Source: an uncultured Oscillospiraceae bacterium
GTDB taxonomy: Bacteria; Bacillota; Clostridia; Oscillospirales; Oscillospiraceae
Assembly: GCA_964384255.1 (NCBI GenBank)
Contig: CAYLKH010000001.1
Span: 10,668-74,667, forward strand
DNA: 64,000 nucleotides
Reading direction: 5' to 3'
How positions within the stretch are numbered: position 1 is the first letter of the stretch; each line of letters starts with the position of its first letter. Of the stretch, positions 8,458-49,952 are shown piece after piece. The translations under genes were made by a program, and so were the position numbers. The notes under the pieces are model-generated. The model made no database searches, was not told where the DNA came from, and saw nothing but the letters and a program-made list of their open reading frames with translations.

Positions 8458-8486
8458 AATATATCAGGGCTGAATAAGGTTGTCAA
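8458..8486 (-). promoter_or_regulatory. Candidate sigma-A promoter for P1
   Basis: On the minus strand: TTGACA (8486-8481), 17 nt, TATATT (8463-8458). Confidence 0.45.
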
Positions 8487-8496
8487 ATTCTATTAG

Positions 8497-8764
8497 AGGT
8501 TAGGATTCAGGATTTAGGGGTTAGGGAAAATAGCCGATAGCCAGTGCGTTTGACGCAGCGATGAAGTCACGCAAGGGGGAAAATCGTCACGGCGATTTGC
8601 CCTTGCAGTCAAATAAATCGGGTCAGGATAAGGTTGTCAATTTGTATGTTTTAGAGTATTATGGGGGTCAGGGATGCACGCCGGATAACAGATAACAGAT
8701 AACAGATGAGGTGTGCCTGCGGCACAGATTTGATTTTTTCTCTTCCCTATTCCCTAACCCCTAA
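8497..8764. repeat. TTAGGG-arm inverted-repeat element, copy A
   Basis: Left arm GAGGTTAGGATTCAGGATTTAGGGGTTAGGG (8497-8526), right arm CCCTATTCCCTAACCCCTAA (8745-8764). The core has a diverged CGCAAGGGGGAAAATCGTCACGGCG block (8570-8594), GATAACA x3 (8685-8705) and a GTGCCTGCGGCAC hairpin. Confidence 0.6.
8634..8662 (+). promoter_or_regulatory. Candidate promoter for alaX-L, inside repeat copy A
   Basis: TTGTCA, 17 nt, TATTAT. The resulting ~105-nt 5' UTR contains GGGGTCAGGGA, which can pair with TCCCTAACCCC next to the RBS. Confidence 0.4.
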
Positions 8765-8775
8765 AGGAGTATACC

Positions 8776-9921
8776 ATGACAGAAAAATTATACTATATCG
8801 ACAGCCATATGAAGACATTTACAGCTCGCGTCATAGCCTGCGACCCCGGCAAAAACGGGTTCCAGGTGATGCTTGACCGCACGGCGTTTTTCCCCGAAGG
8901 CGGCGGTCAGGGAGCGGACACGGGGACTTTGGGCGATGCCCGGGTGCTGGATGCCAGAGAAAAGGGGAGTGAGGTCGTCCATATAACCGATAAAGCCCTG
9001 ACCGTTGGCGAGACGGTCAGGGGCGAGATAGACTGGACATTGCGGTTTTCCCGGATGCAGCTCCACTCCGGCGAGCATATAGTATCGGGCATTATCCACC
9101 GACTTTATGGATATGAAAACGTGGGATTTCATATGAACGGGTCGGAAGCGACTCTTGACGCTGATGGATATCTGGACGAGGATCAGGTGCGCCTGGTGGA
9201 GCGAATGGCAAATGGCGCGGTTTGGGAAAACGTGCCTGTCAAAGCCGGATTCCCTGAGCCGGAGATATTGAAGACCATGGAATACCGCAGCAAGCTGGCT
9301 TTGACCGAAGGGGTGCGCATAGTCGAGATCGAGGGCTACGACCGCTGCGCCTGCTGCGCTCCCCACGTAAGCTTTACCGGAGAGATAGGGCAGATACGGC
9401 TGCTGACCCATATGCGCCATCGGGGCGGCACCCGGATGACCATGGTTTGCGGCGGAGGCGCTCTGGACGAAGCGGTTGCCAAATATTCGGCGGTGGCAGA
9501 GATATCCGCATCCCTGTCGGTGAAGCATCATCAGGCGGCGGAGGCGGTGCAGCGATTGAAGGACGAGGCGGCCCAGGCCAGATATGAGCTTAACCGGCTT
9601 CGTAAGGCTCAGGCGTTGAAGCAGCTGGATGGCCTTGAATATACCGACGGTAACCTTTGCTTTTTCGCCGAAGGGCTTGACAGCGATAGTCTGCGTACCC
9701 TTGTAAATGGAGCGGTGAGCCTGTGCGGTGGCATTGCTGCGGCTTTTTCAAAAAACGAAAAGGGCTGGAATTATATTATGGCCAGCAATACGGTAGACCT
9801 GAGGGCGAGCGCAAAGGACATCAACAGCGCCATCTCCGGCAAGGGCGGCGGCAGCAGCACCATGATCCAGGGCAGCTGCACCGCCGACCGGGAGGAGATA
9901 GAAAGGTATTTTAGGGGTTAG
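8776..9921 (+). CDS. alaX: Alanyl-tRNA editing protein AlaX-L (AlaRS editing domain plus DHHA1-like C-terminus)
   Basis: HSGEHIVSG (HxxxH) and CACCAPH (CxxxH) zinc motifs of the Thr/Ala-tRNA synthetase second additional domain. C-terminal GKGGGSSTMIQG is typical of DHHA1. AAGGAG RBS. Confidence 0.82.
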   Translation: MTEKLYYIDSHMKTFTARVIACDPGKNGFQVMLDRTAFFPEGGGQGADTGTLGDARVLDAREKGSEVVHITDKALTVGETVRGEIDWTLRFSRMQLHSGEHIVSGIIHRLYGYENVGFHMNGSEATLDADGYLDEDQVRLVERMANGAVWENVPVKAGFPEPEILKTMEYRSKLALTEGVRIVEIEGYDRCACCAPHVSFTGEIGQIRLLTHMRHRGGTRMTMVCGGGALDEAVAKYSAVAEISASLSVKHHQAAEAVQRLKDEAAQARYELNRLRKAQALKQLDGLEYTDGNLCFFAEGLDSDSLRTLVNGAVSLCGGIAAAFSKNEKGWNYIMASNTVDLRASAKDINSAISGKGGGSSTMIQGSCTADREEIERYFRG

Positions 9922-10298
9922 GATTTAGGGATTAGGGGCGCTTCCCGCAAGATTTATGCAATACTTGGGTAGTGCGCCGTAGGGGTCGGCGTCCTCGACG
10001 ACCCGCACGTTGCGTGATTGAGTTGTTGTGTCATGCGCACAGCGTCGCGCAACCACCCGTAGGGGACGCAAAAAATTGCTTCGCAATTTTTTGCGTCCCC
10101 TACGGCGCTCCCCGCAAGTTTTCGCAAAAATCTCGCGGGGAGCGCCCCTAATCCCTAGATCCTAAATCCTGACCCCTACTATGAGATTGCCACGTCGGCC
10201 TGTGGCCTCCTCGCAATGACATAAAGGGAACTGCGCTCCTCGCAATGACAGGCGGGGAGCGCCCCTGATTCCTGCCCCCTGAATCCTGAATCCTAACC
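9911..10298. repeat. TTAGGG-arm inverted-repeat element, copy B (composite: one full element plus a second core and right arm)
   Basis: Left arm AGGGGTTAGGATTTAGGGATTAGGGGCGCTTCCCGC (9913-9948) pairs with GCGGGGAGCGCCCCTAATCCCTAGATCCTAAATCCTGACCCCT (10135-10177). Inside are a 23-bp perfect hairpin at 10057..10105 and a second hairpin at 10106..10144. The second core 10183..10249 and right arm 10250..10298 follow. Confidence 0.72.
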
Positions 10299-11321
10299 CA
10301 TATTATCGATCGTTCCGCCACCAAGAACGGTATCGCCCACATAAAATACGGCTGCCTGACCGGCGGCGGGCGCCCGCTGAGGGGAATCGAACTTCAAAAC
10401 AGCGCTCCTGCCGTCGGTGGACAGGGTGGCCGGCTGGGGCTTTTGACTGTAGCGAAGACGGGCGGTAACGCTTACCGGCTCTGTGGGGACGTTGCCGGAA
10501 ACAAAGGTCACGTCCCGGACATAAACAGTGTCGGTCATTAATTCGGCCTCGGTCCCTACGGTGACGGTGCCTTTCGCCGGGTCCTTGCCGATAACATACA
10601 CCCGTTGGCCCATAGGCAGATCGAGGCCCCGGCGCTGGCCGATGGTATAGGCGGCAACGCCCCTGTGGGTCCCCAGTATTTTGCCGCTGCTGTCCACAAA
10701 GCTTCCGGGTTCCAGCTCCCGGCCGGTGTAGCGGGTTATAAAGCCCGGGTAATCTCCGTCAGGAATAAAGCAGATATCCTGACTTTCGGCCTTGTGGGCG
10801 GCCTCCAGCCCCAGAGAAAGAGCAATATCCCGAACCTGATCTTTAGTAAGCTCACCCAGAGGAAACAGCAGCCGATCCAGCTGGCTCTGGGTCAGGTTAT
10901 ACAGTACGTAGCTCTGGTCCTTTTTTGCGTCGGCGGCGGTGGAGATAGCCCAGTGACCCGGGCTGCCGGTTTTTCTTACGTAATGCCCGGTGGCCAGATA
11001 CTGGCATCCCAGCCTGTCGGCCAGGTCGAACAGAGCGCCGAATTTCAGGGCCTTGTTGCAGCTGATGCAGGGGTTTGGGGTCTCGCCCCGCAGATATGAA
11101 TCCACAAAGGGAGAAACTACGCATTTGTCAAATAGATCACGCATATCCACAGCGTGAAATTCTATGCCAAGACTGTTGCAGGCGCTTTCGGCGGACTGGG
11201 CTTCTGAACTGTCGGAAAGGAGCATGGTGGCCCCCACTACCTCATATCCCATATCCATAAGCAGCGCGGCGCAGACCGAGCTGTCAACTCCGCCGCTCAT
11301 GGCGGCTAAAACTTTGCTCAT
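10293..11321 (-). CDS. mnmA: tRNA-specific 2-thiouridylase MnmA
   Basis: AAMSGGVDSSVCAALL PP-loop, CISCN and ATGHY blocks. ATG 11321 follows GGAGG by 5 nt; the ORF track TTG at 11333 is less likely. Confidence 0.92.
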   Translation of the reverse strand: MSKVLAAMSGGVDSSVCAALLMDMGYEVVGATMLLSDSSEAQSAESACNSLGIEFHAVDMRDLFDKCVVSPFVDSYLRGETPNPCISCNKALKFGALFDLADRLGCQYLATGHYVRKTGSPGHWAISTAADAKKDQSYVLYNLTQSQLDRLLFPLGELTKDQVRDIALSLGLEAAHKAESQDICFIPDGDYPGFITRYTGRELEPGSFVDSSGKILGTHRGVAAYTIGQRRGLDLPMGQRVYVIGKDPAKGTVTVGTEAELMTDTVYVRDVTFVSGNVPTEPVSVTARLRYSQKPQPATLSTDGRSAVLKFDSPQRAPAAGQAAVFYVGDTVLGGGTIDNMG

Positions 11322-11691: not shown

Positions 11692-11753
11692 AAAGGGCTG
11701 CCATCGGCAGCCCTTTCAGCGTGTCAAAATAGTCCGTTGGACTATTTTGACAC
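11692..11753. repeat. Hairpin pair: AAAGGGCTGCC/GGCAGCCCTTT stem, then conserved GTGTCAAAATAGTCC hairpin (copy H1)
   Basis: 11692-11716 is an 11-bp stem with a 3-nt loop. 11721-11753 is GTGTCAAAATAGTCC gtt GGACTATTTTGACAC, a 15-bp perfect stem. Lies just after the acpP stop. Confidence 0.7.
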
Positions 11754-11920: not shown

Positions 11921-11945
11921 AAAGGGCTGCCATCGGCAGCCCTTT
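11921..11945. terminator. Second, identical copy of the AAAGGGCTGCC atc GGCAGCCCTTT hairpin, just 3' of rlmH
   Basis: The 25-nt sequence is identical to 11692-11716 and sits 3 nt from the rlmH stop (11949). Confidence 0.6.
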
Positions 11946-14950: not shown

Positions 14951-14980
14951 TAAATGATCAACTCCTGTTAATAGTTTAAT

Positions 14981-15107
14981 AGGGGTTAGAGGTTAGAATT
15001 TAGGATTTAGGGTCGCATGAGGGAAGTTATTTGAGCTGCGGGTCAGAACAGTTATCCCACAAACGCAGTAACTATCCCATATGGACACTAAATTACTAAT
15101 CCCTAAC
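14981..15107. repeat. TTAGGG-arm inverted-repeat element, copy C (short)
   Basis: Left arm AGGGGTTAGAGGTTAGAATTTAGGATTTAGGG (14981-15013), right arm CTAAATTACTAATCCCTAAC (15088-15107). Lies between the predicted promoter and the start codon of the CorB operon. Confidence 0.5.
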
Positions 15108-15119
15108 GTATTTCTATCT

Positions 15120-15180: not shown

Positions 15181-15217
15181 CAAATAAACCAAAGCGGAGC
15201 TTTGATAAAAGCTCCGC
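15181..15217 (-). terminator. Intrinsic terminator ending the riboswitch-led operon
   Basis: GCGGAGCTTT gata AAAGCTCCGC stem, followed on the minus strand by TTTGGTTTATTTG. Confidence 0.6.
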
Positions 15218-15226
15218 CTGGGGGTC

Positions 15227-15778
15227 TTATTCGTTCAGCCATCGGGCGATGGCCATAACGTCGGCAATAGCCTGGCTGTCCTGCTGAGCAGGGACGGTGT
15301 CAGTGTTGGGGGAACAGGCCATGTGTTCACGGAAGCCCTGAGCATTGACCATGCGGAAAAAGGCGCTTAAATGGTGCCGCGCGTTTTCGTGATTGCCCTT
15401 GCTGCCGGCGGTCAGTATGGCTGCGGATTTTTTAGGCCGCAGCTGCAACGGCTGATTTAGAAAATATTTTGCCGCGTGCCAGGGCTGCAACCGGCTCATA
15501 AGGCTCAGTACCGACCCGGGCAGAGTGCCATAATACACCGGCGACGCAATGACAATATTGTCAAAATCGTCGTCATAAATGACTTGCATCCCGTCCTCTA
15601 CCACGCATTTTGCGGTTTCCCAGCAGCCACGGCAGTCAACACAGGGAGCGATGCCGGAGCGGAAGGCAGAGACTTCAATTACCTCGCCCTCCAGATGCTC
15701 ACGAAGGACGCTGATAAGGTAAGCGGAATTGCCGTTCGGCCGGGGAGAGCCGTTGATTATCAATGTCTTTTTGCTCAT
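15227..15778 (-). CDS. Flavodoxin-fold iron-sulfur flavoprotein (Isf-like, NADPH-dependent FMN reductase family)
   Basis: MSKKTLIINGSPRPNGNS (FMN-binding loop) and CVDCRGCWETAKC, the compact Cx2Cx2Cx5C cluster motif described for Isf. ATGA overlap with the upstream gene. Confidence 0.75.
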   Translation of the reverse strand: MSKKTLIINGSPRPNGNSAYLISVLREHLEGEVIEVSAFRSGIAPCVDCRGCWETAKCVVEDGMQVIYDDDFDNIVIASPVYYGTLPGSVLSLMSRLQPWHAAKYFLNQPLQLRPKKSAAILTAGSKGNHENARHHLSAFFRMVNAQGFREHMACSPNTDTVPAQQDSQAIADVMAIARWLNE

Positions 15779-16311
15779 TTTTCTTCTCCAGTTAACTGAC
15801 TGCGTACAAAATCCAGCACCTGAGGATACAGTTCGTCGCGGTTTTCTTCGGTGATATAAAAGCACTTTGCCTTTGGATGGCTGCGCACCGCCTGCAAAAA
15901 CGGAGTGTCCCTGGTTTTTACGGCGGCGATGACCGGTATATCACCGTCCAGCAGCTCAAGCACAGCAGAGCAGAAATCTTTTGCTTTGGACTCCATAAAT
16001 CCCAGCTCGTCCAGCAGGATGATACCGCCTTCCGGCACAGGCTGACGGAGCTTTGGGGCAAAGCGGTCGAACACCTGGGCGGACGCATCAAATCGGTGGT
16101 TTTTGCAATAACCCACCAGATTTTCTTCCGAGCGGCTCCGCTGCTGCCATGCGCTGTAGATATACACGGGACTGCCCAAGGCTTCATCGGCCAGAGCGTC
16201 CTCTTTCTTCGTTTCAAAACCGTAAACCGGCCGGCCGCAGGCTTTAAGCACCCTGTTTATAAGGGTGCTTTTGCCTACGCCCCGTTCACCAATAATAAGC
16301 GTATGCATCAT
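15775..16311 (-). CDS. P-loop NTPase, THEP1/DUF265-like
   Basis: MMHTLIIGERGVGKSTL Walker A, ILLDELG Walker B-like. 178 aa; 4-nt overlaps on both sides. Confidence 0.6.
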   Translation of the reverse strand: MMHTLIIGERGVGKSTLINRVLKACGRPVYGFETKKEDALADEALGSPVYIYSAWQQRSRSEENLVGYCKNHRFDASAQVFDRFAPKLRQPVPEGGIILLDELGFMESKAKDFCSAVLELLDGDIPVIAAVKTRDTPFLQAVRSHPKAKCFYITEENRDELYPQVLDFVRSQLTGEEK

Positions 16312-17444
16312 TTGAAAAAGGCGTTTGCGGTCAGGGTGGCATACTGCTCGTCGGTCAGGGTAACGCCATAGAACAGCTCGTAGTATTCGGTGACTTCTTC
16401 CTGAAGGTCATAGTCGCAGTATTCGGGATAGAGGATGCTGGGCAGCCACAGCAGCGCCAGATAGCGCTGGCAGGCGGGAGGAGCTACGGTCCAGTTGTGG
16501 GGCGAAGCGGGGGATTCCACGTACTTGCCGTTAACGATGGCGCTGATCTGGCTCCACACAGGGTCTTCGGTGGCGGTTTCATATACGCTGCCGTCGCCAA
16601 AGACGACGAATTCCGGATCCCACAGAGCTATCTGCTCCATATTGACAGTGTTGCCCGTGCCTTTACCGCTGGCGTTTTCGATAACTGCCAGATTGTTGAA
16701 CACCAGATTTATGACCTCGGCCTGAGACTGGCTTTCGGCAATAACGTTCAGACCGTCGTCACCCAGAGCGTAGATACCGTTGACCTTGTTGTCGCCTACC
16801 TGGTCCATAATGTCAAGAGCGCGCTGATAAACATCTTCGCACCATGAGGCCATTTCTTCGGCCTTTTCTTCACGGCCCAGCAGCTGACCCAGCTTGCGCA
16901 AGGCTTCGCCGTAATTGTCAAGACCTGCTTCGATGAAGACGCAGGTGATGCCGGTCAGCTCTTCGGTGGTGGCCAGTTCCTCTTCATAACCGGTCTTGGT
17001 ATAACCCATGTCGATGACCAGCTGAGCGTTGGTGGAGGCAAGGGCTTCTACATCAAGGTCGGCAGCACCCAGAACGGAGCCGAAATAGGTCAGCTGAGAC
17101 AGACGGTCATAGTCGGGGATGTATTCGGCCATATCGTCATACAGCTTGCCGCCCAGACCTGCTATCAGGTCGGGAGCAACACCCAGCAGCATGACCTGAG
17201 CCAGCTGGCCGGAGGGAACGACAGCGGTCAGGGGTTCGGTTATCTGAATCTCATGCCCCAGATCGTCTACAAAGGTGTATGGCTGGAAGCCTTCTTCAAC
17301 AGGTTCGGCAGCTTCTTCCACCGGGGTGGACACAGCAGGTTCGGACGAAGCTTCTGCTTCGGTGGTTTCGGCGGTGTTGGCACAGGCGGCAAGACTGAAA
17401 AGCATTGCGAAAGTCAGCAGCAGCGCCAAAAGTCTGGTTTTCAT
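16308..17444 (-). CDS. ABC transporter substrate-binding lipoprotein (cluster A / FecB-BtuF-MolA type)
   Basis: MKTRLLALLLTFAMLFSLAACAN lipobox, an acidic linker, then a periplasmic-binding-protein type 2 body. GAGGAGG RBS. Confidence 0.82.
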   Translation of the reverse strand: MKTRLLALLLTFAMLFSLAACANTAETTEAEASSEPAVSTPVEEAAEPVEEGFQPYTFVDDLGHEIQITEPLTAVVPSGQLAQVMLLGVAPDLIAGLGGKLYDDMAEYIPDYDRLSQLTYFGSVLGAADLDVEALASTNAQLVIDMGYTKTGYEEELATTEELTGITCVFIEAGLDNYGEALRKLGQLLGREEKAEEMASWCEDVYQRALDIMDQVGDNKVNGIYALGDDGLNVIAESQSQAEVINLVFNNLAVIENASGKGTGNTVNMEQIALWDPEFVVFGDGSVYETATEDPVWSQISAIVNGKYVESPASPHNWTVAPPACQRYLALLWLPSILYPEYCDYDLQEEVTEYYELFYGVTLTDEQYATLTANAFFK

Positions 17445-17502
17445 GGTTGGTTCCTCCTCGTTTAAATAAAATATGTTAAGCTTGTTGCTTACGTATTAGC
17501 AG

Positions 17503-17772
17503 TGGGTCAGGGGATATGGAACAGAGAACAGATGGTGAGTGCCTTCGGCACGGATTAAATCATATAAGTCGTTGTGTAGAGCGTTTTGCCATTGCGAGGA
17601 GCGCAGTACCCGTTTTGTCATTGCGAGGAGGCCAAAGGCCGACGCGGCAATCTCACCCCTTGCGAATTCGAGAAGTATCGATAAAACGCAACAGGCTTGG
17701 GTCAACAGTGTAAAATTTAAATATGTGCCGCAGGCACTAATCATCTGTTATCTGACCCCTGACCCCTGAATC
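17503..17772. repeat. TTAGGG-arm inverted-repeat element, copy D, inserted between two genes of one operon
   Basis: Left arm GGGTCAGGGGATATGGAACAGAGAACAGATGGTGAGTGCCTTCGGCAC, right arm GTGCCGCAGGCACTAATCATCTGTTATCTGACCCCTGACCCCTGAATC. Core 17588..17654 is 61/67 identical to the reverse complement of 10183..10249. Confidence 0.72.
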
Positions 17773-18533
17773 GGTACGCATACACGTACTCTGTCGTCGC
17801 TGAGACTGTGTATCTCAACATCGATGCCATAGAGCCTTGACATAAGCTCCGGCTGCATGACCTGCTGGGGAGTTCCCCAGGCCAGGACCTGACCGTCATG
17901 CATGGCAAGGATCCTGTCGGAATACATAAATGCCTGCTCCGGGTCGTGGGTGGTCTGCACAACGGCATAGCCGTCGGCCACAAGCCCCTTGACGGTCTGC
18001 ATGACCCGGATGCGGTTTCCAAAGTCCAGACTGGCAGAAGGCTCGTCCATCACCAGTATTTTTGCCTGCTGAGCAATGGCCCGGGCCAGCAGACAAAGCT
18101 GCTTTTCGCCCCCGGAGCAGAAGCCGTAGGGATGCTCTGCCAGATGGGAGATGTTCATCTTTGCCAATGCGCTGTGGGCAATCTCGATCTGCGCTTTGCC
18201 CGGAGTTGCCAGAGGGCCAAGCTGAGACGCCGTTCCCATAAGCACCATGTCCAGAACGGAATAATTGAAGGTGGGGTTATGGTACTGGGGGATATAGGCG
18301 ATGGAGCGGGCCAGCTCCTGAGCTGACATTTCGGCGACGTTCCGGCCGTCTATCTCGATGGTCCCGGACCTGGGCTTAAGCAGATTCAGAATGCAGCGAA
18401 ACAGGGTGCTTTTGCCAACTCCGTTGGGACCCAGTATGGACAGGAATTCCCCCCGGTGGGCCTCAAAGCTGATGTCCTTTAAAATCTGGCGTTTGCCAAA
18501 ATAAAAATCCAGATGCTGGACCTTTAAACTCAC
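17748..18533 (-). CDS. ABC transporter ATP-binding protein (FepC/BtuD/MolC type)
   Basis: GPNGVGKSTL Walker A, CSGGEKQL signature, ILVMDEP Walker B. The last 7 codons plus stop (IQGSGVR*) lie in the right arm of repeat D. Confidence 0.9.
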   Translation of the reverse strand: MSLKVQHLDFYFGKRQILKDISFEAHRGEFLSILGPNGVGKSTLFRCILNLLKPRSGTIEIDGRNVAEMSAQELARSIAYIPQYHNPTFNYSVLDMVLMGTASQLGPLATPGKAQIEIAHSALAKMNISHLAEHPYGFCSGGEKQLCLLARAIAQQAKILVMDEPSASLDFGNRIRVMQTVKGLVADGYAVVQTTHDPEQAFMYSDRILAMHDGQVLAWGTPQQVMQPELMSRLYGIDVEIHSLSDDRVRVCVPIQGSGVR

Positions 18534-19555
18534 AGCTTGTCACCCTCCTTCATAATGAGATAGATGAAAAACGGAGCACCCACAAAGGACGTGAGTATGC
18601 CGATAGGCAGGTCGGTGGCCCAGACGTTGCGGCAGATATTGTCCACCAGCAGCATGAATATTGAGCCGAAAAGCATGGTGGAGGGGATAAGCTTTTTATA
18701 GTCGTTGCCTACCACCCGGCGTGCCATGTGGGGGATGACCAGACCTACCCAGCCGATAATACCGCTGACAGCCACACTGGCGGCGGTTATAAGGGCTGAG
18801 CATATTATTATGATGACGCGCAGACGCCTGGCGTTGATGCCAAGGGTGCGGGCCTCGTCGTCGCCAAGAGACAGGATGTTTATCCTCCAGCGCAGGGCAA
18901 AGATGGGGATAAGGCCTATAGCCATGGGTATGGCCGCAAAGCCGATATCCCGCATATTGGCCCCGTTAAAGCTGCCCATGAGCCAGTAGGTTATGGCAGG
19001 CAGCTGGTCCTCAGTGTCGGCAATGAGCTTTAAAAAAGAGGTGCAGGAGGACACCAGACTGCTTATCATAACTCCGGCCAGTATCAGCCCAACTACCCGG
19101 TTGCCTCTGGCGCGGTTGCCTACGAAAATGACCAGAGCGACCGTACCCAGACTGAATACAAAGGCCATGATGCTGACGACATAATTGATGTAGCCCAGTA
19201 TAATAGCCAGAGCCGCGCCCAGAGCTGCGCCGGAGCTGGCTCCCAGAATATCGGGAGCGGCCATGGGGTTTTGGAACACGCCCTGATAGCAGGCGCCGGC
19301 GGTGGACAGACAGCAGCCTACCAGACAGGCCAGCAGTATCCGGGGTACCCGGTGCTTTAAAAACAGGGCCTCCTGAGTCTGGGACCAGAAAGGTTCAATG
19401 TCGGTAAAGGGCAGCTTTGACAGGGCAATCCCCCACAGCTCTTTCAGGCTGATGGGATATCTGCCCAAAGTGGTGGACAGGATGCACGCCGCCACCAGCC
19501 CGCCGAACAGGATAAGCATCACCGCCCAGAAGGGGAGTTTGTTTGTCTTTTTCAT
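18530..19555 (-). CDS. ABC transporter permease, FecCD/BtuC family (type II importer)
   Basis: Start taken at MKKTNKLPFWAVMLILFGG. About 10 TM helices, with the FecCD-typical GASSGAALGAALAII and LSLGDDEARTLGIN blocks. Confidence 0.9.
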   Translation of the reverse strand: MKKTNKLPFWAVMLILFGGLVAACILSTTLGRYPISLKELWGIALSKLPFTDIEPFWSQTQEALFLKHRVPRILLACLVGCCLSTAGACYQGVFQNPMAAPDILGASSGAALGAALAIILGYINYVVSIMAFVFSLGTVALVIFVGNRARGNRVVGLILAGVMISSLVSSCTSFLKLIADTEDQLPAITYWLMGSFNGANMRDIGFAAIPMAIGLIPIFALRWRINILSLGDDEARTLGINARRLRVIIIICSALITAASVAVSGIIGWVGLVIPHMARRVVGNDYKKLIPSTMLFGSIFMLLVDNICRNVWATDLPIGILTSFVGAPFFIYLIMKEGDKL

Positions 19556-19559
19556 TGGT

Positions 19560-20102
19560 TTACCTTTTATAATAGTCTCCACCGGCGCAGCCCTTGCACA
19601 GGGTCTTACTGTCAACGACAACGTGACGGTTATCGGAAACCTCTTCGCCACAGACTTCGCAGGTGACGATGGCGACCGGAGGCCCGGGCATATCCCCGGG
19701 AGCAAGGTCGACGGTGACTTCGGTGGCTTCCAGCCAGCCTTCTTCGGGGAGATTTTCGTAAAAATCGGTCAGATCTTCGCCGTTTTCGGGATGGATATGG
19801 TTTGCCCGGACCACCCGGACGGCTTTGCCGGTATCGAGATTTACGAAGGTGGCAGCGGTTTTGCCAAAGTCGTGGAAATAGAAGGTGCGTTTCCCCGGCG
19901 AGGTGCCGGTTGTTATCATAATGGAGTCTGCGGGGCAGCGGTTACACTCCACAAAAACCATCAGCTTCTTCCGGTCGCGCTCGTTGTCCAGCCCAAGCAG
20001 ACGCAGACCCATGTGGGCCATGCGCACTCCCAGACACTGGCCGGAGCAGAGGTGACCGTGAAAGGCCACGGCCCGGTCAAGATCTTCTCTAAATGTCCTC
20101 AT
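19560..20102 (-). CDS. FmdE-family protein with C-terminal zinc ribbon
   Basis: FHGHLCSGQCLGVRM (FmdE core motif) and CEVCGEEV...CKGC. ATG 20102 is 6 nt after GGAGGG; the ORF track start at 20108 is an alternative. Confidence 0.72.
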   Translation of the reverse strand: MRTFREDLDRAVAFHGHLCSGQCLGVRMAHMGLRLLGLDNERDRKKLMVFVECNRCPADSIMITTGTSPGKRTFYFHDFGKTAATFVNLDTGKAVRVVRANHIHPENGEDLTDFYENLPEEGWLEATEVTVDLAPGDMPGPPVAIVTCEVCGEEVSDNRHVVVDSKTLCKGCAGGDYYKR

Positions 20103-20805
20103 TTTCATCCCTCCGAATTACAAATATTCCAAATTCCTTCAGGTTTGGCAGATAGTACGGCCATTTTTCGTGGCCGGTATTTTCCATCCTGTCTGCCAGA
20201 TATTTTTCCAACACCTCGTCGCTCATGGGACGGGAATATGCCCGGGCAAAGGCTCTCGCTTCGTCCATATCTGCCAGCGGCTGACCGTATTCCAGGGAAA
20301 CACTTTCAAGGGTATATCTGACCCCAAGCCCATCCAGATATTCGCTGACGCTGGCAATATCAGAGCATTTTACCACCTGGTGACCTTCAGGGCCAAATTT
20401 GCCTTTTCGGGTCTTGTGGACCAGGATGATAAACTGCTGCTTCGCCAGACGAAAGTACTTTTCATAAAACTGGCTGCCGCCGAAGAAAAGGGCGGTCACA
20501 GTGTCCCATGAGCTTTCGAGAGTGGAGCAGTCGGCACATACGGTGTCCATGTTGCTGATGCCCCGGAGCAATGCACCGCTTTGAACAGCGGCAATAGCCT
20601 CGGGAGAAACGTCCACACAGGTGATACGGCTGCAATGGTCGGCCATTTCAAAATCCAACAGGCCTGCGCCGCAGCCTATGTCGCACAGGCTGCTGCCGAA
20701 GGGGATATATTTTTTCAGCATTTCGGCCAGTTTCCTGTTGTAGCCCGTATATTCCGATGCGTTTTCAAACCATTTGATGGACTGATCGTTCCATTTAATA
20801 TACAC
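20089..20805 (-). CDS. Class I SAM-dependent methyltransferase
   Basis: LCDIGCGAGLLDFEMA (motif I) and VDVSPEAI (motif II). GTG start with AGGAG upstream. Confidence 0.75.
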   Translation of the reverse strand: MYIKWNDQSIKWFENASEYTGYNRKLAEMLKKYIPFGSSLCDIGCGAGLLDFEMADHCSRITCVDVSPEAIAAVQSGALLRGISNMDTVCADCSTLESSWDTVTALFFGGSQFYEKYFRLAKQQFIILVHKTRKGKFGPEGHQVVKCSDIASVSEYLDGLGVRYTLESVSLEYGQPLADMDEARAFARAYSRPMSDEVLEKYLADRMENTGHEKWPYYLPNLKEFGIFVIRRDENEDI

Positions 20806-20809
20806 AGTT

Positions 20810-21919
20810 TCAAGCTCCTGTCAGGTCAACAGATAAGTATTTTAAAATAAATTCCATTATGGCGTCGATATCCTCCAGACCGAAGTGGGGGATATCCCCA
20901 TCTACCTCCATATCAGTCACCACGGCGACGAACCGGCTTATTTCGGCGGTAAAGCCCTTTCCCGTAGCGGAGCGGGCGATGCCTATCTGGGGCAGGTCGC
21001 CGTTTTTGTAGCCCTCGACCAGAATCAAATCAACGTCGTGGCACATGGCCATCTGCCGGTCAAGGGTCAGGGGACGGGATTCAATATAGGCGATTTTTTC
21101 CTTTGAGCCTATCATGGAGATGTCGGCTCCGGCGTGGGTAAAGCGCCATGAGTCCTTGCCCTGGTAGTCGATCTCAAATTTGTGGCCGTCGTGCTTGATG
21201 ACCGCCAGACGCAGACCCTTTTGCTTCATGGCGACGATCAGCTTTTCTATAAGGGTCGTTTTCCCGGTGCCGGAATAGGCGGCAAAGGCGATAGCGGGTA
21301 TGGCGGTTTTGTCCTCAGCTTTTTGCACAGGCAGGGGATGGTATTCGGCATCCCATTTCCGGCCGGAGTGTCCTTGCCTGAGCTTGCCCCGTTCGGGGTC
21401 GTTATAGTAGATGCGGTTGTTTTCAATAAGCTGTTCCAGGGTGACCGGGCGATAATCGTTGATATCCACCCCCGCGTTCAGCACCCGGGGCAGCTGCTGC
21501 AATATGCGGAAGGTTTCTTTCCTGGTGTTGTGGAGATGGCCGTGGATCATGCAGCCCCCCTGAATGTACACCAGTGGATAGTGACACAGAGTAATGTGGC
21601 GGTCGCCGTCGTCGATTTCCAGAAAGTCGGTCACCGTCTCAAAATAGTCCAACAGCTCCTGCTGGTTGGGGATGCAGGTATCGTGATTGCCCCGGATAAG
21701 GTGCTTGTGGCCCCGCAGGCGGCTGAGCTGCTGAGCCGGAAAAGGGGTGCGGTAGCTCCCTATGTCGCCGATGAGGTAAACAGTGTCGTCATCAGAAACG
21801 ACCTCGTTCCAGTTATTAATTAAAGCCTCGTCCATCTCCTCCACCGAGGCGAAGGGACGGGTGGTGGACTCGATAATGTGTTCATAACCAAAATGCTGGT
21901 CAGCAGTATAATAAATCAT
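20810..21919 (-). CDS. Fusion protein: calcineurin-like metallophosphoesterase (N) + MobB-like molybdopterin-guanine dinucleotide biosynthesis GTPase (C)
   Basis: N-terminal YYTADQHFGY...YLIGDIG...RGNHD...GHLH phosphoesterase motifs. C-terminal AYSGTGKTTLIEKLIVAMKQKGLRLAVIKHDGHKFEIDYQGKDSWRFTHAGA is a canonical MobB signature. Confidence 0.8.
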   Translation of the reverse strand: MIYYTADQHFGYEHIIESTTRPFASVEEMDEALINNWNEVVSDDDTVYLIGDIGSYRTPFPAQQLSRLRGHKHLIRGNHDTCIPNQQELLDYFETVTDFLEIDDGDRHITLCHYPLVYIQGGCMIHGHLHNTRKETFRILQQLPRVLNAGVDINDYRPVTLEQLIENNRIYYNDPERGKLRQGHSGRKWDAEYHPLPVQKAEDKTAIPAIAFAAYSGTGKTTLIEKLIVAMKQKGLRLAVIKHDGHKFEIDYQGKDSWRFTHAGADISMIGSKEKIAYIESRPLTLDRQMAMCHDVDLILVEGYKNGDLPQIGIARSATGKGFTAEISRFVAVVTDMEVDGDIPHFGLEDIDAIMEFILKYLSVDLTGA

Positions 21920-21929
21920 ATTCCTCCAA

Positions 21930-21969
21930 ATAAAAACAAAAAAGGCTGCCTTGAAAACAAGACAGCCTT
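21930..21969 (-). terminator. Leader terminator (attenuator) between the riboswitch-like element and the first gene
   Basis: Minus-strand AAGGCUGUCUUG uuuu CAAGGCAGCCUU (12-bp stem) followed by UUUUUUGUUUUU, then GGAGG and ATG 21919. A weaker hairpin plus U-run lies just upstream (about 21975..22015). Confidence 0.65.
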
Positions 21970-22044
21970 AAGCATACCAAAACCAGCCTCGCCAAAACAA
22001 GGCGAAGCAAAAAACGGTCCTGTCTCCTTCTCAAATACGGAAAG

Positions 22045-22173
22045 CCATGTCGTTTCCAACATAACTCAGTGAGGGCGAAATGCATCCCCTCAGGCCGCTG
22101 GTCATAGCTCAGGTAACCCCTGATTTAATCATCGGTCACTTAGGCCTTAGACTCCACGGCTCGGAAACATATG
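22045..22173 (-). promoter_or_regulatory. Riboswitch-like structured leader; class unresolved, best guess Moco/Tuco RNA motif
   Basis: Minus-strand RNA: GUUUCC-GAGCC-GUGG...(long imperfect helix)...CCAGCGGC-CUGAGGGGAUGCAUUUCGCCCUCACUGAG...GGAAAC. The outer GUUUCC/GGAAAC helix, CCGAGCC junction, GGCCUGA and CACU elements match my recollection of RF01055. No B12 box. Confidence 0.45.
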
Positions 22174-22185
22174 TAATTATCAAAA

Positions 22186-22214
22186 ATTGTAACACCAGAT
22201 TTGGAGAATGTCAA
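22186..22214 (-). promoter_or_regulatory. Near-consensus sigma-A promoter for the riboswitch-led operon
   Basis: On the minus strand: TTGACA (22214-22209), 17 nt, TACAAT (22191-22186), preceded by TGt (extended -10). Confidence 0.6.
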
Positions 22215-22303
22215 CATTTTTCCCCGGCGACCCACGAGGGTGACGGAGACTGGACCCCAATAAGGGCTGATATTCGGGCCGGAACGCTGATACCTCCGCG
22301 GTC

Positions 22304-22930: not shown

Positions 22931-22995
22931 GGCGAAACCTCCTGATAAGTTATCTCACGGGTATATTTTATATCATTGCCGGGAAAATATCAATA

Positions 22996-23255
22996 GGATC
23001 CAGGGGTTAGGATTTAGGGGATAGGGATCAGGATTTAGAAACTGGAGATTAAGGAGCGTAACTGCAAGCATTTGCATTTAACACAACATTGTGGTTACGC
23101 AAGGGGAGAGATTACCACGTCGCACAGCTTCCTCGCAATGGCAGTCTCGGAAGTATCTGTTCTCTGCTCTGTGGTCAAACTGGGCAGTATCGGCAATACG
23201 CATAACCTCTCCCACACAGTCCCTAACCCCTGGATCCTAATCTCTAACCCCTGAA
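22996..23255. repeat. TTAGGG-arm inverted-repeat element, copy E
   Basis: GGATCCAGGGGTTAGG (22996-23011) is the exact reverse complement of CCTAACCCCTGGATCC (23222-23237). Core has CGCAAGGGGAGAGATTACCACGTCG (23098-23122) and CCTCGCAATGG (23130-23140), i.e. the shared core in inverted orientation. Confidence 0.72.
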
Positions 23256-23263
23256 ATTACTGT

Positions 23264-23292
23264 TTGCTATTTACATAAAACCGTGCTATAAT
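23264..23292 (+). promoter_or_regulatory. Candidate promoter for murA
   Basis: TTGCTA, 17 nt, TATAAT with TGc extended -10. Confidence 0.5.
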
Positions 23293-25081: not shown

Positions 25082-25837
25082 TTACTCCTTGACAGCCTGA
25101 AGACCTTCGGTAACGTCGGTCACGTGCATGGTGATACTTATGGTGTCGCCGTCAACGCTGCCCACAAAGCGGAACAGGGAACCCTGGGCGGTAACGGTAT
25201 GCAGTTCAAAGGAACAGCCGTCCTTTTTACCGAAGGAAAAAACATTTACGTCGGTTTTGTCGCCAACCTTCATGGGCGGCATGGGAGGCATACCACCGGG
25301 ACCACCGGAACCACCGGGACCGCCAGGACCGCCAGGACCACCGGGACCACCAGGGCCACCAGGGCCACCGGGACCACCAGGACCGCCGGACATTTCGCCC
25401 ATCATCTGAGCCATCTGAGCCATAGACTCCTCGGTCACCAGACCGAACATTTCGCCGCTGAGCTCATCGCCGTTTTCCTCAATGACCAGATGGTTTTCTT
25501 TAACTCCGCCGGGAGAGTAGACACCCACGAGATATTCGCCCTGAACCTGACCGGAAACGCCGGATATCCTTTTTCCGGGTTGAAGCACAATAGTCTCGTT
25601 GGTGGTAAGGGTCAGGTTGGACAGGCTGCCGGAAAAGGTATATTCTGTCCGGCCGACCATAGCCTTGAAGGAAAGCTCGCCGCCGGAGGAGGAGCCGTCG
25701 AATATCTCCAGCTGAGCGCTGGGGTCATAGGGGTTTGAAACAAAGCCGGTGACAACGCCGGAGGTTTCCTCAAGCGTCAGCACGCAGTCCCGTTTTCCAC
25801 CGGGCAGTGACAGAGAAACAGTGTATTTGTCTGACAT
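25082..25837 (-). CDS. Small beta-rich protein split by a (GGP)n / Met-rich cassette, function unknown
   Basis: 251 aa with no signal peptide. ...[49 protein letters not shown]... is inserted between two beta-strand-rich segments. AAGGAA RBS. Confidence 0.7.
   Translation of the reverse strand: [251 protein letters not shown]
25271..25393. repeat. Tandem 9-nt (GGP-coding) repeat tract
   Basis: (GGN CCN CCN)-type units on the + strand, about 8 consecutive GGP codon triplets plus Met-rich flanks. Confidence 0.85.
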
Positions 25838-27954: not shown

Positions 27955-28027
27955 TTTGTTTCTCTTTTCTTTACGTATTTGGGGACAGGTGAGTTGGTGC
28001 GTAGATGGAAAGATATTGAAAATCATG

Positions 28028-28248
28028 GTCAGAGGGTCAGGGATCAGGGGCCGTAATTGTAAGCAATTGCGAAATATTTGAGGTTTTCAGTAGAACTGTC
28101 GTTGTGAAGCGGCAAAGCCGACGTGGCAATCTCACCCCTTGCGTGATTGCACGCGGTAGTTAAACGCATAGCTTTGCAGCTACGGACACTTAATTACCAA
28201 TCCCTAATTTCTAACCCCTGATTCTATCTGTTATCTGTATATCTGACC
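28028..28248. repeat. TTAGGG-arm inverted-repeat element, copy F
   Basis: Left arm GGTCAGAGGGTCAGGGATCAGGGG, right arm CCAATCCCTAATTTCTAACCCCTGATTCTATCTGTTATCTGTATATCTGACC. Core AGCCGACGTGGCAATCTCACCCCTTGCG (28116-28143). Abuts the stop codon at 28249. Confidence 0.7.
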
Positions 28249-29055
28249 TCAGGCATCCCGCGGCACGGTGTCGCGAACAAGGATAATGTGATCTGACACA
28301 GTGGCGGAGATGGTTTTGCTCTGGCCCACAGGGTCGCCGTCGTAGGTGTAGCGGTCAACGGCGCAGTCGGAATAATCCCGGCCATGGGCGATCTTGAGAT
28401 AACCGTCCTCTATCCGGGTGTTAAGGGTGGGGTCAAAAGCTATCCATTTGTTGTCCACATAGACCTCGGCCCAGACATGGGCTCTGGAAACCCCCTTGGC
28501 CAGACCGATAACGTACCTGGCCGGGATCCCGGACATGCGGCAGAAGGTGATGAATACCTGAACGTAGTCCCGGCTGACACCCCGGGCAGAGCGGAATGCT
28601 TCGGCTGCGGTGGTGGAGACGGCGGTTTCGCCGGGGGCATAGGTCATCATATTGTGGACAGTTTCCATCAGGCACTGGACCCGGGCATAAGGAACGGCGG
28701 GCAGCTGAAGATCCATCAAAAAGCGTTGCATTTCGCTGCTGGGGTTGGTAAAGCGGGAAGGATAAAGGAAGATGCGGTCCAGCTCTTCGTGGATCATATA
28801 TTTGCTGCAAAGCACGAATCCGGAGGCGGTGAAGCTGAAAGAGGTGTGATTTTTGTCGATACTGCCGCTGTAGGTCAGGTTGCCATAGCTGTCATATGCG
28901 GTGCTGACAGCGGCCTTGGGAGAAAGGGACAGAGTATGGCCATAGGTACGCTGGAATGGATAGGTGCCGGGCATACAGCGAAGCAGAAAATGGTGGCGCT
29001 TAACGGGGGCATCGAACACCCAGTTACAGCTGAAACTGAATTCATATTTTTTCAT
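28249..29055 (-). CDS. Transglutaminase-like (papain-fold) protein with Ser in place of the catalytic Cys
   Basis: RGVSRDYVQVFITFCRMSGIPARYVIG...AHVWAEVYVDNKWIAFDPT aligns to the usual GVCRDFA...GIPARYV...HAW.E.Y...W..FDPT core. AGGAGGG RBS. Confidence 0.8.
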   Translation of the reverse strand: MKKYEFSFSCNWVFDAPVKRHHFLLRCMPGTYPFQRTYGHTLSLSPKAAVSTAYDSYGNLTYSGSIDKNHTSFSFTASGFVLCSKYMIHEELDRIFLYPSRFTNPSSEMQRFLMDLQLPAVPYARVQCLMETVHNMMTYAPGETAVSTTAAEAFRSARGVSRDYVQVFITFCRMSGIPARYVIGLAKGVSRAHVWAEVYVDNKWIAFDPTLNTRIEDGYLKIAHGRDYSDCAVDRYTYDGDPVGQSKTISATVSDHIILVRDTVPRDA

Positions 29056-34124: not shown

Positions 34125-34452
34125 TGTCAGGGGTTGCGGATCAGTAATTAGTGCGGGCAGTGCCTGCGGCATGACCTAATCAGGAGACGGGGCAGGAAAT
34201 CGGTTTTGCCCAATAACTGACCCCTGATAACTAACTCATATAACCTACCCATTATATCATATACACATGACAGTTTGCTAGACCAAAATGCGGTCAGGCA
34301 GCGGTTTTAATATTAAATAACGCTGCCGATTTCCAGATGATGGAAACCGGCAGCGTTTCAGCGTGTCAAAATGATCCGCTGGACTATTTTGACAGCCTCG
34401 ATATGATATGACTATTGGTTATCTGACAACTAACTACTGATAACTAATCCCT
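34125..34452. repeat. Composite repeat region, copy G: arm/core/arm element, variable hairpin, GTGTCAAAAT hairpin (H2), extra right arm
   Basis: Arms GTCAGGGGTTGCGGATCAGTAATTAG (34125-) and CAATAACTGACCCCTGATAACTAAC (34210-). Hairpin AACGCTGCCG...CGGCAGCGTT (34319-34357). H2 GTGTCAAAATGATCC gct GGACTATTTTGACAG (34363-34395). Arm GGTTATCTGACAACTAACTACTGATAACTAATCCCT (34417-34452) overlaps the galE stop. Confidence 0.55.
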
Positions 34453-45860: not shown

Positions 45861-45894
45861 AAAATCGCCGCGACAAATCGTCGCGGCGATTTTT
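45861..45894 (+). terminator. Intrinsic terminator after the MATE gene
   Basis: AAAATCGCCGCGAC aaatc GTCGCGGCGATTTT followed by T. Confidence 0.7.
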
Positions 45895-45898
45895 ATCC

Positions 45899-49890: not shown

Positions 49891-49952
49891 ATTATTGACC
49901 TCCAATTCATTTCATTTTCTTCAAATCGCAGTTTACACAGATCGATGGAACA

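Follow-up and report, generated by a model that had tools for sequence, protein, structure and literature searches.

Mirror-image heptamer arrays enclosing REP-like hairpins at seven intergenic sites of an Oscillospiraceae chromosome

A stretch of 64,000 nucleotides from an uncultured Oscillospiraceae bacterium (contig CAYLKH010000001.1, positions 10,668 to 74,667; this whole stretch is referred to here as the window) carries seven non-coding elements which form a real repeat family and lie in the gaps between genes of an ordinary housekeeping part of the chromosome. The elements are 130-390 bp long, have no coding capacity and consist of two independent ingredients, a pair of mirror-image arms made of tandem heptamers and a variable cargo of hairpins that are reminiscent of repetitive extragenic palindromes (REPs). 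The cargo is drawn from a GTCATTxyGAG...y'x'AATC unit with a pan-bacterial distribution, GTAG-type palindromes and a GTGCC..GGCAC hairpin, and the arms belong to a known, functionally unexplained class of intergenic heptamer simple-sequence repeats. The sites are neither genes nor telomere relics. On balance they are probably selfish or neutral mosaic DNA akin to bacterial interspersed mosaic elements (BIMEs) and to REP doublets forming hairpins (REPINs), a reading that builds on the directly observed structure and statistics of the sites, on their mosaic make-up, turnover and supply of stop codons, and on positional rules that extend across phyla.

An initial annotation had placed the family at 8497-8764 (site A), 9911-10298 (site B), 14981-15107 (site C), 17503-17772 (site D), 22996-23255 (site E), 28028-28248 (site F) and 34125-34452 (site G), and direct reading of the sequence recovers all seven, each with a G-rich left arm and a right arm of the reverse-complement type. 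The order of the arms is the same at 7/7 sites, G-rich on the left and C-rich on the right, so that whichever strand is read, the arm at its 5' end is the G-rich one; the G-rich strand faces inward from either side, and the arrays extend to the very edges of the adjacent genes. The arms are composed of a degenerate tandem heptamer with the consensus WYAGRRN, which is present in three to seven units per arm and typically reads TTAGGGG, TTAGGAT, TTAGGGA, TCAGGGG, TCAGGGA, ATAGGGA or ACAGATA. Three such units in register are found 15 times in the window, always within the seven sites, compared to 0.01 expected from dinucleotide-preserving shuffles of the window, and the stricter TYAGGNN x4 yields two matches against 0.00 expected from the shuffles. 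With Tandem Repeats Finder, arrays that have a period of 7 or 14 are called at 8684, 9910, 10262/10278, 14993, 17752, 22993 and 28191/28225, and none with a period of 7 is called outside the seven sites of the 64-kb window. The heptamer arms are clustered, being present in seven of approximately 10 gaps of at least 100 bp between 8 and 35 kb and in none of approximately nine such gaps between 35000 and 64000. The possibility that they are chance low-complexity G-rich sequence without any family relationship is practically nil: the word TTAGGG is not over-represented in the window (eight copies in 64 kb), as this explanation would have it, but it is refuted by the register-specific array counts, by the Tandem Repeats Finder arrays and by identical stretches of 18-27 nt that are common to different loci, and the arms are confined to intergenic gaps, always G and then C.

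The TTAGGG units had been described as telomere-like and as unusual in a bacterial chromosome, neither of which holds. The likeness to telomeres is superficial because the period of the arms is seven and not six. A telomere relic can be ruled out, as the arrays are internal, short, degenerate, inverted-paired and, in a sister lineage, AT-rich (AATTAAT); none of the window arrays is of the long, uniform kind found at replicon ends. Intergenic G-rich heptamers, including convergent inverted pairs that adjoin or overlap stop codons, are on record from Xanthomonas and Nostoc (Rehm et al. 2015; PMC4692102), and a genome scan adds arrays from many phyla among the matches listed.

The complementarity reported between 22996-23011 and 23222-23237 at site E extends to 22994-23011 and 23222-23239 (18/18), and similar pairing is found at site A (8750-8765 with 8513-8528, 16/16) and site B (9913-9959 with 10124-10170, 87%). 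Arms from different loci are also closely related to each other. In an all-against-all comparison of the seven gaps the left arms of A and C match at 25/27 positions, those of B and E at 18/18, and the right arms of C (15083-15106) and F (28184-28207) at 22/24, non-heptamer sequence included; a further inter-locus arm stretch matches at 22/23. Because these shared stretches exceed what a 64-fold-degenerate heptamer motif gives, arms at different loci are copies by descent.

The large hairpins that had been anticipated from the long arm pairing agree with the predicted folds, which pair the arms and are very stable relative to shuffles (z = -13.8, -5.6 and -4.25). Such folds would suit a functional cis-acting structure, in which the two arms pair into a long stem, either in mRNA or in DNA, and serve as a bidirectional insulator or terminator, as a stabiliser of mRNA 3' ends, as an RNase III site or as a coupler between termination of the upstream gene and the ribosome-binding site of the following one, the heptamers guaranteeing stops in three frames. 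Hairpins of Correia elements, for instance, are cut by RNase III. This explanation is considered unlikely, and the pairing itself speaks against it, since heptamer arms of the same site pair no better than arms of different sites (mean local score 13.8 vs 12.1, p = 0.07). Element-specific compensatory pairing of the heptamer arms was rejected on the same comparison, and the longer same-site pairing at sites B and D stems from extra inverted repeats that are not heptamers.

The elements are mosaics of four kinds of module, and their interiors are otherwise unrelated in the all-against-all comparison. Besides the heptamer arms these are a GTGCC(kk)CGGCAC hairpin located beside ACAGAT units (8696-8731, 17520-17556, 17719-17754 and 34159-34171), a core repeat (10182-10250, 17587-17664 and 23097-23143, with a half unit at 28117-28144) and GGACACTWAATTAC, which directly adjoins the C arms of sites C and F on their inner side. 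The core unit consists of GTCATTxyGAG, a variable stem that mostly carries a triloop, and y'x'AATC. The 67-nt core that had been noted at sites B and D is borne out, with 10182-10250 and 17587-17655 being 91% complementary over 69 nt (92.4% over 66 nt in the all-against-all comparison). Shorter versions had been proposed at three further places, of which those at 23097-23143 and 28117-28144 stand, whereas the one at 8570-8594 is weak and shares only about 9 nt (CGCAAGGGG). A fuzzy search of the window finds full core units at 10185-10218 (minus strand), 17619-17652 (plus strand) and 23110-23140 (minus strand), in both orientations as had been claimed, and none in 20 shuffles.

Both stems of the core covary. 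In the outer stem, 10 of the 12 GTCATTxyGA sites have a complementary partner at the variable positions compared to 0.4 expected, and four pair types occur (ATTGC/GCAAT, ATTCC/GGAAT, ATTTC/GAAAT and ATTCT/AGAAT); this was counted in the window and its relatives, in loci that had not been picked by the core pattern. In the predicted RNA fold of site D, the ATTGC/GCAAT stem closes a GGCC-triloop-GGCC hairpin. A metagenome scan with the pattern CATTGCGAGGAG-N3-30-GACGYGGCAATC detects at least 120 loci (L131-L250, for example L211, L140 and L161). Among the matches listed, the contig names point to a human gut assembly and to samples of various other kinds, and the units read GTCATTGCGAGGAG-[inner segment]-CGACGYGGCAATC and occur singly, in tandem arrays or often together with an inverted partner GGATTGCTTCGCTNCGCTCGCAATGAC. 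The inner segment is an end-to-end hairpin with a stem of 2-8 bp in 53 of the 78 distinct variants among these matches, and its commonest loop is a triloop, most frequently GGA, GTA, GAA or GCA. To judge from its sequence, the core is a hairpin of the REP-like kind that is flanked by conserved sequence. In DNA, hairpins with a GNA triloop are unusually stable, and the prevalence of such loops hints at a single-stranded DNA stage. Canonical copies of the core have no match in Rfam at E values up to 0.1, and a literature search with the exact sequence found no relevant paper.

Arms and core had been regarded as parts of one element, which is not the case. Loci of other phyla that had been selected by their arms contain, over 0.84 Mb, a single strict core unit, and looser relatives of the core usually lie more than 1 kb from the arms at these loci; arms and core are therefore independent repeat classes, the core being a hairpin repeat in its own right. 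The composite of G arm, core units and C arm is also seen in the unrelated metagenome contigs L210 and L208 and, in a looser form in which the left array is not G-rich, in L142.

Five genes have a stop codon that is supplied by an arm. The G-rich arm of site B holds the TAG stop of alaX (9919-9921, plus strand) and the second C-rich arm of the same site that of mnmA (TAG, 10293-10295, minus strand), and C-type arms hold the stops of the gene encoding an ATP-binding cassette (ABC) ATPase at site D (TAA, 17748-17750, minus strand), of the transglutaminase-like gene at site F (TGA, 28249-28251, minus strand) and, in the second such arm of site G, of the epimerase/dehydratase gene (TAG, 34444-34446, minus strand). 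In two cases a C arm comes to within 0-2 nt of a ribosome-binding site. The C-rich arm of site A (8740-8764) is directly followed by the AGGAG (8765-8769) of alaX, which starts at ATG 8776 on the plus strand, and the arm of site G at 34125-34175, read on the minus strand, stops 2 nt short of the GGAGGTG of the sugar-transferase gene, which starts with TTG at 34111. Because the period is seven, units that contain a stop close all three frames, as is the case for 7/9 C arms in the plus direction and for the TTAGG-type G arms of sites B, C and E; arm A closes two. These features are in support of a cis-acting structure, and Liang, Rudd and Deutscher are said to have found in 2015 that translation in Escherichia coli is affected by REP hairpins located no more than about 15 nt from a stop codon. 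Against such a structure, arms of the TCAGGGG type have no stops in the inward direction, the arms at divergent sites are located upstream of the promoters, and inspection of the divergent-site sequences found no terminator-like T-tract after the arm stems.

Relatives were found via AlaX and MurA homologues, on contigs of four kinds. L130 is from the same species as the window, and a sister lineage is represented by L125 and L251-L258 (MurA 94% identical; NCBI label Ruminococcaceae/Oscillospiraceae), of which L251 is syntenic with the window from 6.5 to 32.7 kb. More distant are L126 and L127 (82% MurA identity), L122 (62% AlaX identity) and L121 (76% AlaX identity). Site E is identical in L130. 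Site C is a clean block difference of 130 bp, its flanks being contiguous in L125 and L251. Site E is missing from the same two contigs, where the two divergent promoters are the same but are separated by AT-rich sequence; the element in the window has replaced a resident spacer and is no simple insertion. At this spot L126, L127 and L122 carry a shorter, different armed element with a core-type hairpin (GTCATTCT...AGAATGAC), and each arm of L122 is one unit longer than its counterpart in L126. Site B has TTAGGGN/NCCCTRA arms in the window, compared to AATTAAT (left) and CTGTTAA and TTATTAA (right) in L251, where the arms enclose an inverted doublet of the shared GTAGGGG hairpin; the interior module GGGGNCGGCGTCCTCGACGNCCC is also common to both, and the first arm units hold the stops of alaX and mnmA in either lineage. 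Site F has AGGTTAA-type units in L251. The alaX leader at site A is made up of wholly different modules in the window and in L251. Here a 13-nt box, ATAAGGTTGTCAA, is duplicated at 8474-8486 and 8628-8640 around a 141-bp insert; one copy provides the -35 element of both divergent promoters in the sister lineage, and in the window there is one copy per promoter. Downstream of murA, L251 carries an armed element (TTAGGGGTTAGGATTTAGGGG ... CTGTTAC/CTTATTA) at a position where the window has none.

Between close lineages, then, whole elements come and go or are remodelled, and their position at gene ends, the 7-nt period and the mirror symmetry are kept. Turnover as blocks speaks against conserved regulatory RNAs and, together with the kept symmetry, in favour of selfish or neutral DNA under structural or mechanistic constraint. 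A conserved cis-regulatory leader or terminator is not what the comparison returns, the element not being conserved at orthologous positions in close relatives; gaps of the sister lineage either have no element (C and E) or, in the site A leader, unrelated modules. The joint change of type in both arms at the orthologous site B is, on the other hand, a point in favour of a cis-acting structure.

The same comparison includes a larger difference, in that approximately 7 kb of the window (about 15200-22300) are replaced in the sister lineage by a single gene for a metallo-beta-lactamase-fold protein (L125:3094-3969, L251:8224-9099). Flanked by sites C and E and with site D in its interior, the segment encodes a flavin mononucleotide (FMN) reductase, a nucleoside triphosphatase (NTPase), a periplasmic-binding-protein/FecCD/ABC importer, a methyltransferase and MobB together with a riboswitch. 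The latter is a molybdenum cofactor (Moco) riboswitch at 22008-22178 (minus strand, 64.9 bits), located upstream of the MobB-domain gene at 20810-21919.

The inverted arms, the size of 130-390 bp without coding capacity and the clean insertion or deletion of the site C block are what would be expected of a true family of MITEs (transposable elements of the miniature inverted-repeat type), in which arms and cargo are cut and pasted as a unit by a transposase encoded elsewhere and the heptamer arrays act as terminal inverted repeats. The enzyme might be of the TA-targeting IS630/Tc1-like type, given that the outermost bases are often TA-GGGG...CCCC-TA and that the TA in the empty site of site C fits a TA duplication; arm ends at different loci are, moreover, near-identical. 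The TA at the ends of elements proves nothing, however, because every TTAGG unit contains TA. A MITE family is fairly unlikely, as the type, number and length of the arm units differ widely between copies, the interiors are not homologous, site A is flanked by the 13-nt duplication and not by TA, and site E replaced a spacer. That there is no transposase in the window, as had been stated, is borne out by a domain scan of 49 open reading frames (ORFs; 110 to 854 amino acids), and no Y1 transposase domain was found in the 64 kb. No transposase lies between the distant G and C arrays of L039, L049 and L083, which are separated by ordinary housekeeping genes, and BLAST searches gave no match for site B in plasmids or for site D in phages. 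Of the label MITE/BIME-like that the initial annotation had used, the second half stands (non-coding, inverted arms, mosaic interior) and the first is doubtful (interiors not homologous, duplication ambiguous, no transposase seen).

Other origins were also rejected. Arrays left behind as footprints of repeated target-site duplication would give direct and not inverted flanking repeats. A relationship to attC sites, CRISPR or tRNAs was discarded on the grounds that the window has no tRNA and no repeat-spacer structure and that the arm units are unlike GTTRRRY. A search of the window against Rfam 15 returned the Moco riboswitch only, and within the sites no hit at E values up to 5 attained the gathering score of its family; the near-perfect 49-nt palindrome of site B (10057-10105) has a weak match to mir-5728 (33 bits compared to a gathering score of 100).

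The rules that govern the arms hold beyond the Clostridia. A genome scan for four TYAGGNN units provided cross-phylum loci, a sample among the matches listed and not a census, from Cyanobacteria, Acidobacteriota, Planctomycetota, Verrucomicrobiota, Bacteroidota, Chloroflexota, Gemmatimonadota, Deltaproteobacteria, Lachnospiraceae and others. Some hits located at the end of a contig may be contaminating eukaryotic telomeres, and arrays closer than 300 nt to such an end were excluded. Many of the listed loci share a layout of G array, short or long spacer and C array, and adjacent arrays of opposite type within 400 bp of each other follow the order G then C in 14 cases and C then G in two. In 102 intergenic arrays outside the window, likewise among the matches listed, the gene-proximal end is the 5' end of the G-rich strand 79 times as opposed to 22 (p = 1e-8), and 63 times as opposed to 13 when the gene is within 30 nt. 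The median distance to the gene is 16 nt on this side and 120 nt on the other (112 listed arrays including 10 from the window). Arrays within 30 nt of a gene adjoin its 3' end on the sense strand in 43 cases and its 5' end on the antisense strand in 21, and 18 of them have a stop codon in or at the array. Across the phyla sampled, the G-rich strand starts at the gene boundary and points away from the gene, so that the positional bias reported for the Xanthomonas and Nostoc repeats (PMC4692102) is seen again in a wider, independent set of arrays.

The strict polarity and the gene-boundary rule, as seen among these matches, are what a cis-acting structure would predict. A locus from a Lachnospiraceae metagenome-assembled genome (L054:508-585) has ATAGGGG arms opposite CCCTAA/CCCTGA units that are not strictly complementary, which suggests that motif and orientation are kept rather than pairing alone and counts against a cis-acting stem. 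The same locus, by keeping the motif in both arms, would suit an array that folds into G-quadruplexes (G4) or offers tandem sites to a CsrA-like GGA binder, to S1/Csp proteins or to a nucleoid protein. CsrB carries CAGGAUG repeats, which the TCAGGAT and TTAGGAT units resemble. The class of repeat and its positional rule are as in known G4-forming repeats, whose preference for four units is close to the three to seven units per arm seen here (PMC4692102). Such an array is nonetheless very unlikely. No arm has four G3+ tracts, the canonical G4 motif, and the three such motifs of the window all lie in coding Gly/Pro repeats and equal the number in shuffles; two-tetrad motifs are not enriched either (about 4.2 per kb in the sites, 5.8 per kb window-wide). 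The AATTAAT arms of the sister lineage can neither form a G4 nor carry GGA. We know of no binding protein for heptamer arms, which also counts against this explanation.

With respect to the favoured BIME/REPIN-like origin, it is proposed that the hairpin modules spread as non-autonomous DNA via single-stranded hairpin intermediates, in the manner of REPs and REPINs, and pile up in intergenic nests; the prevalence of triloops, many of them GNA, would fit hairpins formed in DNA. The arms may grow and change by replication slippage at the edges of the nests, and intra-strand template switching within the hairpin could keep them mirror-symmetric, as is suggested by both arms having changed together at site B and grown together in L122. 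Selection would tolerate the G-then-C orientation alone. G-rich units with stops would be harmless after a stop codon, where they can replace the last codons of a gene, and G-rich runs resembling a Shine-Dalgarno sequence just upstream of a start would not be tolerated, a filter that could give rise to both the polarity and the gene-boundary rule. Secondary effects on expression are likely, with elements adding hairpins to read-through transcripts, closing all frames and displacing promoters.

Several points weigh against this origin. The census of elements covers 64 kb of the source genome only, which restricts the count of seven sites to this stretch, and neither the window nor the sequence between distant arm pairs at other loci yields a mobilising enzyme. 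The duplication at the ends of site C, judged against the empty site, is compatible with TA or TAA and hence ambiguous. Armed elements of the sister lineage are identical in 6-8 independent samples, which is at odds with fast slippage, and unit-number polymorphism of a fast kind was rejected accordingly; these samples were picked by identical MurA protein and may be one clone, and their identity therefore says little on the rate of slippage. An armed element is present in the gap between murA and the CYTH gene in lineages down to 82% MurA identity, which could reflect long persistence at one site and not mobility. The joint change of the arms at site B and their joint growth in L122 could likewise reflect selection for pairing, that is, function. 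Finally, the slippage, template-switching and selection steps are ones that we infer.

A more far-reaching possibility, which is distinctly unlikely, is that inward-facing heptamer arrays are the signature of one undiscovered pan-bacterial process or enzyme with the core hairpin as its mobile partner. Candidates are a hairpin-directed transposition or repair of single-stranded DNA that writes 7-nt repeats symmetrically, or an insulator of translation or transcription that has been selected repeatedly. The signature may comprise the G-then-C polarity, the frequent donation of stops and, in several lineages, the bracketing of nests of triloop (often GNA) hairpins. The GTCATTxyGAG...AATC unit would then be an undescribed REP-like superfamily across phyla.

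The make-up of the individual sites illustrates the mosaic principle. The G-rich arm of site A (8493-8527, plus strand; TTAGAGG TTAGGAT TCAGGAT TTAGGGG TTAGGGA) lies within the 141-bp insert between the two copies of the 13-nt -35 box. It is followed in the alaX 5' leader by a second G-type run GGGGGTCAGGGATG, (GATAACA)x3 and the hairpin TGTGCCTGCGGCACA (together 8663-8731, plus strand). Tandem Repeats Finder scores the period-7 run at 8684-8707 with 100% matches, the hairpin is located at 8712-8726, and the whole is homologous to 17520-17556 and 17719-17754 of site D. Site B lies between the genes for an AlaX-type editing protein and MnmA and has a G-rich arm at 9911-9938 (plus strand; TTAGGGG TTAGGAT TTAGGGA TTAGGGG), followed by an interior (9939-10144) that forms a long imperfect palindrome with REP-like hairpins of the GTAG type. 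These GC-rich palindromes include GTAGGGG at 9979 and 10059 and CCCCTAC at 10097. The first C-rich arm (10145-10178, plus strand) pairs with the left part of the site, and between it and the second C-rich arm (10262-10299, plus strand) lies the core (10182-10250, minus strand) with one and a half hairpin units, GTCATTGCGAGGAG ... GTCATTGCGAGGAG-GCCACAGGC-CGACGTGGCAATCTC. In the neighbouring gap between mnmA and a SPOUT methyltransferase gene, two identical 25-nt palindromes, AAAGGGCTGCCATCGGCAGCCCTTT, occur at 11692-11716 and 11921-11945, 229 bp apart from start to start.

The whole of site C extends over 14979-15108, with a G arm at 14979-15013, cargo and a C arm at 15088-15107. Site D begins with a G-type arm and the hairpin GAGTGCCTTCGGCAC (17503-17556, plus strand; TCAGGGG ATATGGA ACAGAGA ACAGATG), continues with the core (17587-17664, plus strand; GCCATTGCGAGGAG ... 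GTCATTGCGAGGAG-GCCAAAGGC-CGACGCGGCAATCTCACCCCTTGCG) and ends in an inverted copy of the GTGCC..GGCAC hairpin with the C-type arm (17719-17772, plus strand). Site E has a G-rich arm of six to seven units (22996-23040, plus strand), a degenerate core unit with GAGGAA and GGTAATC (23097-23143, minus strand) and a C-rich arm (23220-23255, plus strand) upstream of a promoter-like site of murA at 23264-23292. At site F the G-type arm (28027-28050, plus strand; TCAGAGG GTCAGGG ATCAGGGG) is followed by the half core (28117-28144, plus strand; GCCGACGTGGCAATCTCACCCCTTGCG) and by the GGACACTTAATTAC module with a C-type arm composed of CCCTAA, TTCTAA, CCCCTGA and ATCTGTT units (28184-28252, plus strand). 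Site G consists of a degenerate G-type arm with the GTGCCTGCGGCA hairpin (34125-34175, plus strand), a first C-type arm (34212-34237, plus strand; AATAACTGACCCCTGATAACTAACTC) and a second one (34420-34455, plus strand). Further neighbouring genes include those for two CNNM/CorC transporters, an iron- or B12-type ABC importer, a CYTH protein and MurA, a C26 peptidase, transglutaminase-like and ATP-grasp proteins, and a sugar transferase and an epimerase.

A second dispersed repeat overlaps with site G. This palindrome of 37-39 nt, AGCGTGTCAAAATAGTCCGTTGGACTATTTTGACACG, has four copies of 85-100% identity at 11714-11752, 34356-34394 (within site G), 39829-39867 and 45893-45931, and could be a bidirectional terminator or an operator-like site. 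Between 38338 and 45858 the window contains four paralogous transporters of the MatE family in alternating orientation around a coenzyme A (CoA)-transferase gene, and two of these genes harbour an 86-nt inverted repeat (40706-40791 and 44930-45015, 76% complementary). Tandem repeats of 9 nt and 27-33 nt that are rich in Gly/Pro are found at 25292-25389, 49502-49873, 53184-53277 and 61434-61529, in ORFs without a Pfam match (25082-25837, 48205-49905 and 52833-54947 on the minus strand, 61369-62826 on the plus strand) which look like collagen-like or low-complexity secreted proteins.

Reports of heptamer repeats between genes go back to 1990, and these repeats are still unexplained. The present sites tie such arrays to nests of REP-like hairpins in a Clostridia lineage, and sister lineages provide direct evidence that whole elements and the type of heptamer turn over as position, period and symmetry are kept. 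The rule measured for the G-rich strand across the phyla sampled is sharp and testable, and a common mechanism, if true, would be a general feature of bacterial genome architecture. In practical terms the elements supply stops and C-terminal tails to real genes and displace promoters, and they break assemblies and yield spurious small ORFs in annotation.

In comparison with known systems, the eukaryotic telomere repeats TTAGGG and TTTAGGG have in common with the arms short G-rich units that contain TTAGGG; unlike telomeres, the window units are mixed with TCAGGGG and ACAGATA, always inverted-paired and, in the sister lineage, replaced by AATTAAT. Among MITEs, Correia/NEMIS, ERIC, RUP and Nezha are similar in being small, non-coding and intergenic with inverted ends and presence/absence differences, and can supply stops or promoters and fold into mRNA hairpins. 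The window sites have terminal inverted repeats at 7/7 positions, variable in sequence and length, and differ in presence between relatives. MITE copies, however, are homologous over their full length and have defined terminal repeats and duplications, whereas the window sites share only the arm motif and scattered modules in the all-against-all BLAST. As to duplications, site C is compatible with TA or TAA and hence ambiguous, site A has one of 13 nt, and site E is a replacement. A closer likeness is to the REP/BIME/REPIN systems (PMC2817692, PMC3116915), which are extragenic mosaics of short imperfect palindromes in both orientations with inverted doublets that form long hairpins. The covarying short palindromes and mosaic units of the window, in both orientations, correspond to this description, as do the inverted doublets of the metagenome loci, the GTAG units in the GTAGGGG hairpins of site B and in the inverted doublet at site B of L251, the absence of coding capacity and the lineage-specific content. 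REPs are usually species-specific, in contrast to GTCATTxyGAG...AATC, which recurs in metagenomes from many habitats with its flanks nearly identical. BIMEs have no heptamer arrays around them. REP systems come with a REP-associated tyrosine transposase (RAYT) of the Y1 HUH type and more than about 100 copies per genome; no RAYT is seen in the 64-kb window.

The arms themselves have counterparts in the short tandemly repeated repetitive (STRR) heptanucleotides of Calothrix PCC 7601 (cited in PMC4692102) and the TAACTGA repeats of Beggiatoaceae, Cyanobacteria and Bacteroidetes (MacGregor 2015; PMC4679880), which too consist of heptamers in tandem, are placed at gene boundaries and are scattered over the phylogeny; TAACTGA likewise carries stop triplets and is located just upstream of start codons. 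Their descriptions are of direct repeats with other unit sequences, hardly ever of inverted pairs, and mention no nested hairpin cargo. Heptamer repeats are further known near recF and recO of Nostoc (bioRxiv 10.1101/2022.06.06.494920); a function is established neither there nor in PMC4679880 or PMC4692102. The best match is with the GGGAATC repeats of Xanthomonas and the GGGGA(C/T)T repeats of Nostoc (PMC4692102), which lie no more than about 50 bp from the end of an ORF, following a stop on the sense strand, in some cases overlapping it, or preceding a start on the antisense strand; each Xanthomonas genome has 70-75 convergent inverted pairs, and G4 formation with a preference for four units has been shown in vitro. 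Like these, the window arms are intergenic tandem heptamers of few units with one G-rich strand, positioned at ORF ends in housekeeping surroundings, and without an explained function. They differ in that WYAGRRN is degenerate within a single array, that the G tracts are too irregular for a canonical G4 (a motif search found at least four G3+ tracts in none of the arms) and that most units carry a stop codon, which GGGAATC does not. They are set apart further by a Clostridia (Oscillospiraceae-like) host, by pairs that enclose nests of REP-like hairpins and by elements that differ wholesale between sister lineages.

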